Source: a virus. Taken from it: 64,000 nucleotides of DNA. The notes below the pieces were generated by a model, which was not told the DNA's origin, did no database searches, and was given only the letters and a program-made list of their open reading frames with translations. Positions 23,685 to 25,846 of the stretch are shown one piece after another; the stretch's first letter is position 1, and the number at the start of each line of letters is the position of its first letter. A program made the position numbers and the translations under genes. Location: IMG/VR virus record IMGVR_UViG_3300045988_166471, positions 2,366 through 66,365 of that record, one strand, 5' to 3'.

Positions 23685-24545
23685 TTATTTTACAGGGGCT
23701 GTCAAGGCAAATATTTTTTTTACAGATTCAATCCAATATAAAGCTGCTTCTCTATCTACAGTACTTAGATGCACTGTTGTTGTTTTAGTAAAATCATCTG
23801 GATCAGGAATTTCTAAATCCCAAATTTTAATAGGATTCATTTTATCTTGATCTAACACAATACGTCCTTGATTTAAATTATTTAAATTAATAACAATAGT
23901 TTCAAAGGTTTTATTTAATAACATAGTATATGTCATTTTTCCATTTTCATCTTCATTCCAATTGCTTACAAGACCAGCGACACTATTATCACCAAACTCA
24001 TTTATATAATTTTTATTATTATGTATTTTACTTATTTTTAAATTTTCAAATAACCTAAAAATAATCTTTTTGAGATTATTTATATCATCACTTTCTGCGA
24101 TACGAGAGATATGTAAATTCTTTTCTAATTCATTTACTTCTTCACTTGTACAGCCGTTGTTACAATGTCCGATACAACCTCCAGAACAAGTTCCTGAACA
24201 TTGCTCAGCACAAGCTGTTGTACAAGTACCAGAGCATCCTCCACTACAAGAGCCTTCACAACTAGAACAAGAATCATCACAGCCGCCACAATATCCAGTG
24301 CAACTATCACAATCACCAGTACAATCTGTATCACATGTTCGCTTTGGACCACAGTCTACACTGCATTCTCCACAACCTGCTACGCAATCACTACCAGAAC
24401 AACTAGAGCAAGCATTCTCTCCCGTATTTATTGCTGTATTATAGCAATCGGATTCACAAGCTCCTCCTGATTGTCCTGGGAGATAATTATCTGTGCCTTC
24501 ATAGCGACCCATTTCTCTACTATCTCGTCCTGAATTACAAGCCAT
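23685..24545 (-). CDS. Extremely cysteine-rich protein (about 40 Cys in roughly 130 N-terminal residues, CxxC/CxxxC repeats) with a C-terminal globular domain. Candidate substrate of the adjacent radical-SAM/SPASM enzyme
   Basis: RBS AAAGGAGGA plus ATG at 24543-24545. CESDC...CSSCSGSDCVAGCGECSVDCG...CTGDCDSCTGYCGGCDDSCSSCEGSCSGGCSGTC... Starts 2 nt after the stop of the rSAM gene. No in-frame TAG. Confidence 0.6.
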   Translation of the reverse strand: MACNSGRDSREMGRYEGTDNYLPGQSGGACESDCYNTAINTGENACSSCSGSDCVAGCGECSVDCGPKRTCDTDCTGDCDSCTGYCGGCDDSCSSCEGSCSGGCSGTCTTACAEQCSGTCSGGCIGHCNNGCTSEEVNELEKNLHISRIAESDDINNLKKIIFRLFENLKISKIHNNKNYINEFGDNSVAGLVSNWNEDENGKMTYTMLLNKTFETIVINLNNLNQGRIVLDQDKMNPIKIWDLEIPDPDDFTKTTTVHLSTVDREAALYWIESVKKIFALTAPVK

Positions 24546-24547
24546 AA

Positions 24548-25846
24548 TTATTCCTCCTTTATTAAGTAATTATATTCTTCTTGAGTAATAATTTTATTTA
24601 CAAAATTATAATCAAATTTGCCAATTCTATTTAAAGCCTTTTTATCATTTAGTTTTTTATAAAAATATATAGTGGATAAACATTCAGCTTTATGGCATTC
24701 ACATATTGTCGTAGTTCTATGACATAAATCTCCTGTCATCTAATAGCTACATCCAGCACACCAAGCACATCCTCTTTCTATTGGACATTCTAAGCATTCT
24801 TTAGTAGATATATTCTTTTTTGTATAATTTTTAAAAATTTCTAATATCTATTTTTCAGAATTAGTATAACCAATACCATGTTTTATATTGCCAATTATTA
24901 AAGGAGGTGCATCATTACCTAAAGAACTTTCCATAAAACGGATACAAGTATAAATATCTCCTTTCCAATCTAAAGAAAACATATTAGAAGTAGTTCCACA
25001 CCATCTTTCTTCTAATTTTTCTATTTCTAGTGGAGCATAATTATTAGGTTCAAAAGGCCTAAAATAAATATCATCTTGTAAATTATTATTGATAATATAA
25101 TCAGCTATTTTCTTTAATTCATTATAATAAGTTTTAATATACTCTTCTTTAGTCCAAACATTCTCAAAAACACAATTGGCATAAATATTATTAAATCCTA
25201 ATTCAATCATGTTTTTTACTCCTTTAAAAATATAAGATAAATTATCTGGACTAAAAGTTATTTTAGTTCCTCCATTACCATTTTTAAGTAAATCTAATCC
25301 TGCTTTAACTGCTAAATCATAGCTGCCTTGACCATTAGGAAATAAACGACATTTATCATGTAATTCTTTACAACCATCAATAGTTACATTTATTGATGCA
25401 AATGTTCCGTATTTTTTTAAAAATTTCTATACTTTTGGAGTAAAATATAAAACTCCATTAGAACATAAACTAAAGGCATGAAACATTTGCCATGGAGAAT
25501 CTTTTGGAATTTCATTTAATTTATTTTCAAAATATTCACAAATCTAATCAATTAAATCAATTTCTAATAAAGGTTCTCCTCCAATAAAATCTAGAATAAA
25601 TCCAAATACTTTTCCTTCATAAAAATATGATCCAGGATTAGTCCGTCCTTCAAATATATAATCAATAAATTTTTTAGCAATTTCAAAAGACATTTTATGA
25701 TGCCCTTTATTTATTTGATAACAATAAGAGCAGCATAAATTACAATCATCAGTTACTTGAAAAGTAATATTTTTCATCATTTTTCCTTCCCAATTTGGGA
25801 AAAGAGTATAAACGTAATCAGCATACTAGTAATTAGGTTCTAACAT
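24548..25846 (-). CDS. Radical SAM enzyme with C-terminal SPASM domain (anSME / RiPP-maturase-like), several in-frame TAGs
   Basis: RBS AAAGGAG plus ATG 25844-25846. CNLCCSYC is a CxxxCxxC cluster. C-terminal CLECPIERGCAWCAGCSY-TAG-MTGDLCHRTTTICECHKAEC is SPASM-like. Verified by direct translation across TAG 24739-24741. Confidence 0.8.

Follow-up and report, generated by a model that had tools for sequence, protein, structure and literature searches.

Among the systems in which a radical S-adenosylmethionine (SAM) enzyme acts on a cysteine-rich substrate, PapB/freyrasin and CteB/SCIFF provide the best characterized relatives of the enzyme considered here. In addition, the SPASM enzyme QhpD introduces thioether links from Cys to Asp/Glu into the quinohemoprotein amine dehydrogenase small subunit, and its substrate, QhpC, receives 3 or 4 links to acidic residues and stays functional as a protein. 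A further system, the CXXX-repeat system, is defined in silico by curated NCBIfam/TIGRFAMs models and consists of three parts, namely, a maturase (TIGR04115, "radical SAM peptide maturase, CXXX-repeat target family"), a Cys-repeat target (TIGR04114 type), and an accessory protein (TIGR04116 type). These models have been curated for years, with no chemistry, product, or role to be found for the family in the searchable literature. Our search returned nothing on TIGR04114, TIGR04115, or the CXXX repeat, and searches on radical SAM with phage, tail fiber, or thioether, and on ribosomally synthesized and post-translationally modified peptides (RiPPs) with prophage, returned nothing relevant.

Here, we analyze a cassette of this kind in a 64,000-nucleotide (nt) stretch of viral DNA (positions 2,366 to 66,365 of IMG/VR record IMGVR_UViG_3300045988_166471), which we call the window. 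An earlier note on this DNA, made from the sequence alone, had read the two genes as a radical SAM/SPASM enzyme and its Cys-rich substrate, a RiPP-like or protein-crosslinking pair, and both genes are indeed found on the minus strand where it placed them. Family membership and co-occurrence across genomes now support that pairing. The cassette is a phage version of the three-part CXXX-repeat system, in which, as we propose with a probability of about 0.5, the enzyme thioether-staples a cysteine ladder that is possibly tail associated. The system is not categorically new, since the curated models already define it.

The maturase and its recoded gene

The enzyme gene (24548..25846, minus strand) encodes a protein of 432 amino acids (aa), identified by its translation and by its match to TIGR04115 (381.1 bits, E 6.5e-114), which passes the curated cutoff of 350 bits and aligns aa 25-395 with positions 2-359 of the 359 in the model. 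The next-best NCBIfam families are all thioether formers, namely, PapB (NF047865, 175.4 bits; cutoff, 340), the SCIFF maturase (TIGR03974, 109.5 bits; cutoff, 425), QhpD (TIGR03906, 101.7 bits; cutoff, 453), and CcpM (95 bits, also under its family cutoff). The anSME family, which the earlier note had proposed for profile comparison together with those of SCIFF and QhpD, scores only 42 bits.

These scores bear on whether the enzyme might perform another reaction, such as formation of formylglycine or thioaldehyde from Cys, epimerization, C-C coupling, or methylation, and leave no thioether staples. Each of these reactions is known from SPASM enzymes, we could find no characterization of the TIGR04115 family, and the target's repeat lacks the PapB-like Cys-X3-Asp motif. 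Nevertheless, the scores for PapB, SCIFF, and QhpD (175, 110, and 102 bits) stand against 42 bits for anSME, 44-48 bits for the cyclophane formers, and 44-57 bits for cyclophane and C-C formers together, and we consider a different chemistry unlikely. By analogy with the nearest families, thioether formation on the ladder is slightly favored.

The enzyme carries the SAM-cluster motif CX3CX2C as C35/C39/C42, within the string CNLCCSYC that had been picked out earlier, and a full set of seven SPASM cysteines (C283, C301, C351, C354, C360, C363, and C382). All of these residues are invariant in a 17-sequence alignment of relatives. Its PHROG match is phrog_1802 (184.7 bits), and the nearest solved structure is that of CteB (5WGG, E 4e-20). 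Because the latter alignment begins at CteB residue 94, the enzyme lacks the N-terminal substrate-recognition (RRE) domain of CteB. The enzyme family is large, with 3,906 clusters at E < 1e-20, and relatives occur on at least 485 IMG/VR contigs and in at least 529 stretches of GTDB genomes. A defense-system reading of the enzyme was rejected, as PADLOC gives only a 31-bit generic match of the radical SAM core to pVip.

The window has a G+C content of ~28%, and nearly every gene lies on the minus strand. Open reading frames (ORFs) of at least 100 aa total 50.7 kb with the standard code and 74.7 kb with TAG as a sense codon. The enzyme gene itself contains five in-frame TAG codons (codons 7, 101, 140, 333, and 369; 25826-25828, 25544-25546, 25427-25429, 24848-24850, and 24740-24742, minus strand), at which the standard code cuts it into four pieces. 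Since these codons occupy conserved Gln columns of the relatives (16/16, 13/16, and 12/16), TAG is read as Gln in this phage. The window holds five tRNAs, all between 41601 and 48545, which include a tRNA-Gln(TTG) and no CUA suppressor. As TAG covers 5 of the 11 Gln positions of the enzyme, the full-length protein would be made only while TAG is read as Gln. TAG-containing genes of other recoded phages are reportedly late, as Borges et al. are said to have described in 2022. The target gene has no TAG, just as the earlier note had observed, but this is uninformative: with 4 Gln codons and a TAG share of 24% of Gln positions across the window, the probability of finding none is 0.33, and TAG absence was therefore rejected as a timing signal. 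TAG usage among the genes of the window is bimodal. It is zero in 25 of 59 genes, including some with up to 28 Gln codons (e.g., 30752-33241 and 26251-27630), and in high-TAG genes it makes up at least one-third of the Gln positions (e.g., 12/17 in 54275-55777 and 14/24 in 754-2496).

A megablast search with 12 kb around the cassette gave no match among GenBank phages. A 93%-identical copy of the enzyme is present on a 188-kb IMG/VR contig, and target homologues were found on contigs of 180-214 kb from human-gut samples.

The cysteine ladder, its helpers, and their co-occurrence with the enzyme

The target gene (23685..24545, minus strand) encodes a 286-aa protein with 26 cysteines. The enzyme gene ends 2 nt before it, as previously noted: the stop codon TAA (24548-24550) is followed by the spacer (24546-24547) and the target ATG (24543-24545). 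The Shine-Dalgarno sequence AGGAGGA (24552..24558, minus strand) lies within the final codons of the enzyme gene. Given the short spacer and this overlap of AGGAGG with the enzyme's last codons, translational coupling of the two genes is plausible.

Almost all of the cysteines (25, in place of the ~40 counted earlier) fall within aa 30-132 (24150..24458, minus strand), which we term the ladder. Of the 25 Cys-Cys gaps, 16 are of 4 residues and 5 are of 3 residues, and gaps of 5, 6, 12, and 27 residues occur once each, with chiefly G, S, T, and D between the cysteines. Across the target family, we counted 580 gaps of 4 residues and 121 of 3 residues, with C-[ST]-G-[GST] as the consensus of the repeat. 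In the window target, only 4 of the 16 CxxxC units have Asp at the third position, where the family has mainly G, S, or T. We collected 45 target homologues, and the full-length ones keep the order of ladder and then domain. The last ~9 repeats of the ladder (aa 100-132), which adjoin the domain, are nearly invariant across the family, and the first (distal) repeats vary in sequence, number, and length. Such a pattern would suit a rod or spacer that is attached to a specific domain and whose length can be adjusted.

At the start of the C-terminal domain (aa 133-286, ~155 aa; 23688..24149, minus strand) is a helix motif, ESDDINNLKKIIFRLFE, similar to the motif DFxxLKxxVKxEMxRR in the N-terminal domain of commoner phage-type targets (see below). 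An hhalign comparison of the two domain families gives a probability of 54% (E 1.3e-4) over the motif region only. The domain is otherwise lineage restricted. An exhaustive search of 1.84 billion representatives returned 12 matches, about half of which belong to its own family or are short fragments, the rest being apparently compositional, and tblastn with the domain gave no match. Scans of Pfam, NCBIfam, PHROGs, and PADLOC produced zero matches for the target, and the same libraries yielded nothing for the C-terminal domain or for phage-type targets of other loci. Profile searches of the PDB with the target family and the N-domain family gave chance-level matches only. An AlphaFold2 model of the target from a 36-sequence alignment has a mean predicted local distance difference test score (pLDDT) of 39.7 and is unusable for fold searches.

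In what follows, L-numbers denote loci of related enzymes and P-numbers denote target homologues. The TIGR04114 model (cutoff, 20 bits) scores related phage-type targets at 10-21 bits, and the L008 protein alone passes. A precomputed annotation, PF27846.1, is attached to the homologues P0038, P0039, P0166, P0168, P0172, and P0178, so a recent Pfam entry may cover part of the target homologues; our Pfam-A scan of P0038 and the other scanned targets did not report it. The most extreme targets that we encountered are those of L030 (3276-5285; 669 aa with 145 Cys), from a Tenericutes-labelled metagenome-assembled genome (MAG), and L023 (3846-5279; 477 aa with 95 Cys), in which the spacing is nearly all CxxxC or CxxC.

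The enzyme-target pairing is real. We scanned the 80 closest of the at least 485 IMG/VR contigs with enzyme relatives, as well as 80 bacterial/MAG loci (925 kb in total), and found that a Cys-periodic ORF accompanies the enzyme in 76 of the viral loci and 71 of the bacterial ones, which is the opposite of the lack of co-occurring homologues that the earlier note had named as evidence against a functional pair. All such ORFs in the viral loci (94/94) are on the enzyme strand. As a control, the 925 kb of genome loci contain 97 Cys-periodic ORFs on the radical SAM strand and 0 on the opposite strand, and the same scan found no second Cys-periodic ORF in the rest of the window. Hand examination of loci L001-L012, a human faecal phage record, and the phages ChrisDB, SEGD1, and SPN3US likewise revealed a Cys-periodic ORF in each. 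The sole exception among the hand-examined phage loci is Campylobacter phage CPt10, whose enzyme is 21% identical and which has no Cys-ladder ORF nearby; given this low identity and the absence of a ladder, the CPt10 locus appears to be unrelated, and the Campylobacter phage radical SAM genes were set aside as relatives.

A third component accompanies the pair. In phage-type and Clostridia loci, a protein of 95-125 aa that ends in W-x-[LV]-D-F is encoded directly upstream of the enzyme, and a match to it (the helper) is present in 79 of the 80 viral loci. Its profile aligns with that of a small-protein family of the Bacteroidales loci (hhalign 96.7%, E 3e-10), which is TIGR04116 (CXXX repeat peptide modification system protein; 96-101 bits, cutoff 50 bits). 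The window contains three relatives, all on the minus strand. A full-length, phage-type helper of 95 aa (19373..19660) lies 4 kb downstream of the cassette, and its match to the helper hidden Markov model (HMM; E 5e-13) spans model positions 4-96, with E 1.4e-14 for its syntenic counterpart in L001/L002. Directly downstream of the target is a 184-aa ORF (23073..23627), aa 89-134 of which match the helper HMM (E 4e-6), as do the syntenic ORFs of L001/L002 (E 1.3e-5) and L014 (E 3.7e-6). Finally, the canonical position directly upstream of the enzyme gene is occupied by a 77-aa ORF (25851..26084), a divergent helper relative with similar ORFs at the same place in L001, L014, and L098. The helper HMM does not match the 77-aa ORF significantly when applied directly (E 1.7), and the link is provided by the 77-aa family profile, which aligns with the phage-type helper profile over 80 columns (hhalign 85%, E 6e-6). 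TIGR04116 itself has no direct match to the 95-, 77-, or 184-aa ORF, so the homology of the window helpers to that family is supported through profiles alone. The AlphaFold2 model of the 95-aa helper, predicted as a single sequence, scored 51.4, which is too poor for fold searches. We infer that the helpers supply in trans the recognition function absent from the enzyme.

Phage-type cassettes, their position, and the fate of the product

Clustering of neighbors over 84 loci separated three types of system. In the Bacteroidales type (L047-L093), the Cys-repeat peptides are short, bear twin-arginine leaders (...SRRxFFK...), and come with dedicated TatA/TatC; such TatA and TatC genes were counted in 22-27 of the 84 loci, and their presence suggests that the product is exported in a folded or cross-linked state. 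The Clostridium type combines short peptides with an ABC exporter and a QhpE-like subtilisin (S8 protease). The phage/prophage type has targets of 200-670 aa with up to 145 Cys (L030), and its loci, like the window cassette, contain no exporter or protease among their neighbors. Based on enzyme similarity and target architecture, we assign the window cassette to the phage type.

Two target layouts occur within this type. In the commoner one, an N-terminal domain of ~110 aa (DFxxLKxxVKxEMxRR...Y.G..YDF...EH) is followed by the ladder, and the reverse layout, with the ladder first, is found in the window family, L011, L028, L037, L038, and P0043-45. Between the domain of the window target and the common N-domain, the helix motif is the only shared element. 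The N-terminal ladder that the earlier note had singled out as unusual is thus a true feature of this protein, but it is one of two layouts rather than a peculiarity of the window. With a 286-aa target and no leader protease or exporter among its neighbors, the locus is not a RiPP cluster in the strict sense, and of the two readings originally offered, protein cross-linking fits better. Given that lack of protease and exporter, the product probably stays a phage protein and is not released as a peptide.

The commonest neighbors in viral contigs are baseplate wedge (phrog_6 and phrog_120), tail protein (phrog_521), Dit (phrog_33), and minor tail protein (phrog_538), with virion structural protein also frequent. 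Tail/baseplate genes are found 2.4-8 kb upstream of the enzyme; relative to the latter, the median positions of target and helper are -1.8 kb and -0.33 kb, and further large proteins come after it. The cassette of the Desnuesiella massiliensis and Neglectibacter prophages is flanked by a candidate baseplate/tail-fiber module on one side and by the lysis genes on the other. The order in Desnuesiella massiliensis is candidate baseplate, candidate tail fiber, target, two small ORFs (the one adjoining the enzyme being the helper), enzyme, holin, and amidase, where the baseplate and tail-fiber labels come from ORF translations only and the Desnuesiella holin and amidase are Pfam confirmed.

The prophage region that adjoins the lysis cassette is a frequent site for cargo genes, and this common cargo position might indicate that the product is a RiPP-type peptide, released to act as an antimicrobial or a signal, which would help the lysogen or kill its competitors, the C-terminal domain serving as a cleaved follower. 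The bacterial relatives of the enzyme, with their short precursors, ABC exporter, and S8 protease, do resemble classical RiPP clusters. However, phage-type loci, including the window cassette, offer no protease or exporter, their targets of 200-670 aa contain a conserved domain, the viral contigs place the cassette within a tail operon with large proteins after it, and SPN3US and ChrisDB, both jumbo phages, carry it as well. A released peptide is therefore, in our estimate, quite improbable.

In the jumbo phages, the genes in question have been partly hidden by annotation. For the radical SAM genes of Salmonella phage SPN3US (gp163/gp164), Erwinia phages ChrisDB and phiEaH2, and Cronobacter CR5, the annotation goes no further than "putative radical SAM superfamily protein." Their products share 26-29% identity with the window enzyme across 80-90% of its length and score 114-126 bits with TIGR04115, far under its cutoff. 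These phages also differ in carrying a second radical SAM gene and in having short targets with a C-terminal ladder. Tandem genes for ~130-aa Cys-ladder proteins, with 20-21 Cys each, lie ~2 kb upstream of the radical SAM genes, at 143828-144220 and 143413-143817 in SPN3US (L094, JN641803) and at 145865-146248 and 145460-145855 in ChrisDB (L007, KX397366), all on the minus strand. One of the SPN3US ORFs has no annotation, and SPN3US_0166, called in a different frame, overlaps the other. In Salmonella phage SEGD1 (L013), gp169 and gp170 were called in wrong frames and one ladder copy is frameshifted, and the ChrisDB annotation places gp188, on the opposite strand, over one of the copies. Neither the SPN3US locus nor a repeat scan with ChrisDB and SEGD1 among its loci gave a helper match. 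The SPN3US cassette comes after gp168, which is reported as a tail protein at the baseplate periphery (PMC5105663), and gp167, which is annotated as a virion structural protein.

Since related cassettes lie inside tail/baseplate modules, the most likely fate of the product would be that of a tail-associated virion component, and we hold this location of the target as a tentative assignment, with odds somewhat short of even. The tail association is a property of the family, known for the loci of relatives; the window's own cassette sits elsewhere. Its neighbors are nonstructural (flotillin-like, PhoH/PIN, kinases, phosphatases, and amidase), and both this setting and the lineage-specific C-terminal domain would suit a modified protein that works inside the infected cell, outside the virion, in host takeover, redox buffering, or counter-defense. 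Against such an intracellular role, the tail-module position dominates the related viral contigs and prophages, and models of defense and counter-defense systems match nothing beyond the generic radical SAM core, so that we give it little credence. The flotillin-like protein itself (459 aa; 26251-27630, minus strand), encoded just upstream of the cassette, is unusual phage cargo. It scores 229.6 bits with FloT, which is under the cutoff, its syntenic contigs have Band_7/Flot Pfam matches, and none of its 24 Gln positions is encoded by TAG.

For the thioether-stapled ladder that we favor, the mechanism might be as follows. The helper or helpers would replace the missing RRE domain and present the target, probably via the helix motif beside the ladder, to a SPASM enzyme with one SAM-cleaving [4Fe-4S] cluster and two auxiliary clusters. 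Hydrogen abstraction from backbone or side-chain carbons in the C-[ST]-G-x repeats would then lead to bonds with neighboring Cys sulfurs, and repetition over ~25 cysteines would produce a run of small thioether rings. The product would be a covalently stapled, rigid, protease-resistant rod attached to the folded C-terminal domain. Because the consensus contains no conserved acidic residue, the acceptor would be a Ser, Thr, or Gly carbon, or else the chemistry would be new.

Several observations weigh against this proposal. The proposed chemistry draws on family resemblance. The family repeat contains no conserved Asp/Glu acceptor of the kind found in PapB (ranthipeptide) and QhpD substrates, a point on which the residue context suggested earlier needs adjusting. 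TIGR04114 does not match the window target, or the ladder alone, even at E 10, and the C-terminal domain has no recognizable fold and no relatives beyond its own lineage. The window cassette lies between the flotillin-like gene and PhoH/amidase genes, outside the tail modules. A search of the main text of two SPN3US virion-proteome papers for neighboring gene products and the radical SAM term turned up no such protein, which is weak evidence because the ladder ORFs are missing from the annotation. Lastly, the dedicated Bacteroidales Tat systems would fit a metal-loaded product equally well.

This last point favors a different view of the ladder, in which it binds metal and contains few thioethers or none; it could serve as a metallothionein-like sink or as a scaffold for Fe-S, or it could form a metal-stapled fiber. 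A His-Fe ladder at the tip of the T4 long tail fiber is an example of such metal stapling. Twenty-five closely spaced thiols in a Gly/Ser-rich context, a repeat with no conserved acceptor residue, and the twin-arginine leaders and TatA/TatC of the Bacteroidales relatives, a route typical of cofactor-loaded proteins, would all suit a metal-binding protein. Simple binding leaves unexplained the same-strand linkage to a SPASM enzyme and a helper in most of the 160 scanned loci, however, and the nearest characterized enzyme families all make Cys thioethers; thus, metal binding in place of stapling seems to us an unlikely account.

Further features of the window, related systems, and significance

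The window contains a second radical SAM cluster (48610-58225, minus strand, read with TAG as Gln) beside tail-fiber-like genes. It comprises a divergent 667-aa radical SAM protein with a glycosyltransferase-like C-terminal half (56222-58225) and two further divergent radical SAM genes (54275-55777 and 52905-54275); the best matches of all three to NCBIfam peptide-modifying radical SAM models reach only 22-43 bits. A 171-aa ORF (55729-56244) with a C-terminal low-complexity tail rich in Ser/His/Tyr/Gly/Asp/Trp may be a second radical SAM substrate, and three paralogous ORFs of 282-310 aa lie at 51804-52652, 50861-51793, and 48610-49485, all of these being on the minus strand. In addition, three minus-strand ORFs (15347-16036, 42949-43707, and 47748-48395) open with a GIY-YIG-like motif (...IYKITN...YIGQS/IYIGKT) in their translations and are probably homing endonucleases. 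The first of them is located between genes resembling topoisomerase/gyrase subunits (12692-15073 and 16233-17942).

Compared with the CXXX-repeat system, the window cassette shares the maturase, as judged by the TIGR04115 cutoff, the CXXX periodicity, the helper relatives, and the helper-enzyme gene order. It differs from that system, with its TIGR04114/TIGR04117 targets, in being phage borne in a genome that reads TAG as Gln, in having a 286-aa target that falls under the TIGR04114 threshold and whose ladder is N-terminal to a lineage-specific 155-aa domain, in having helpers too divergent for TIGR04116, and in lacking an exporter, protease, or Tat genes. The resemblance to QhpD/QhpC is that of a SPASM enzyme cross-linking a protein that remains functional as a protein, which for the window pair we infer, and the Clostridium-type relatives share a QhpE-like protease with that system; the few links of QhpC to acidic residues contrast with ~25 Cys in a simple repeat with no conserved acidics. 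Unlike PapB and CteB, the window enzyme scores under both family cutoffs, has no N-terminal RRE domain, and has a target with no Cys-X3-Asp motif that is ~6 times longer than the SCIFF peptide.

What is newly shown here is a large phage branch of the CXXX-repeat system with protein-sized targets, no export machinery, and usually a tail-module position, of which we found no prior description. It is conceivable, although we consider it rather doubtful, that stapled ladder proteins form a widespread and overlooked class of phage tail/baseplate proteins in Clostridia prophages, recoded gut phages, and SPN3US-like jumbo phages. Since the SPN3US and ChrisDB targets are absent from the annotation or misframed in it, annotation-based proteomic searches could not detect them, and these two phages are culturable carriers of the cassette. 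If our proposal is true, this would be the first radical SAM post-translational cross-linking of a viral structural protein, and the family would provide a natural scaffold with up to 145 cross-linkable cysteines. The capsid of phage HK97 is hardened by an isopeptide chainmail, and if the ladder is stapled and present in virions, covalent radical chemistry would join the ways in which phages harden their particles, with the variable length of the ladder setting the length or stiffness of a fiber-like element.

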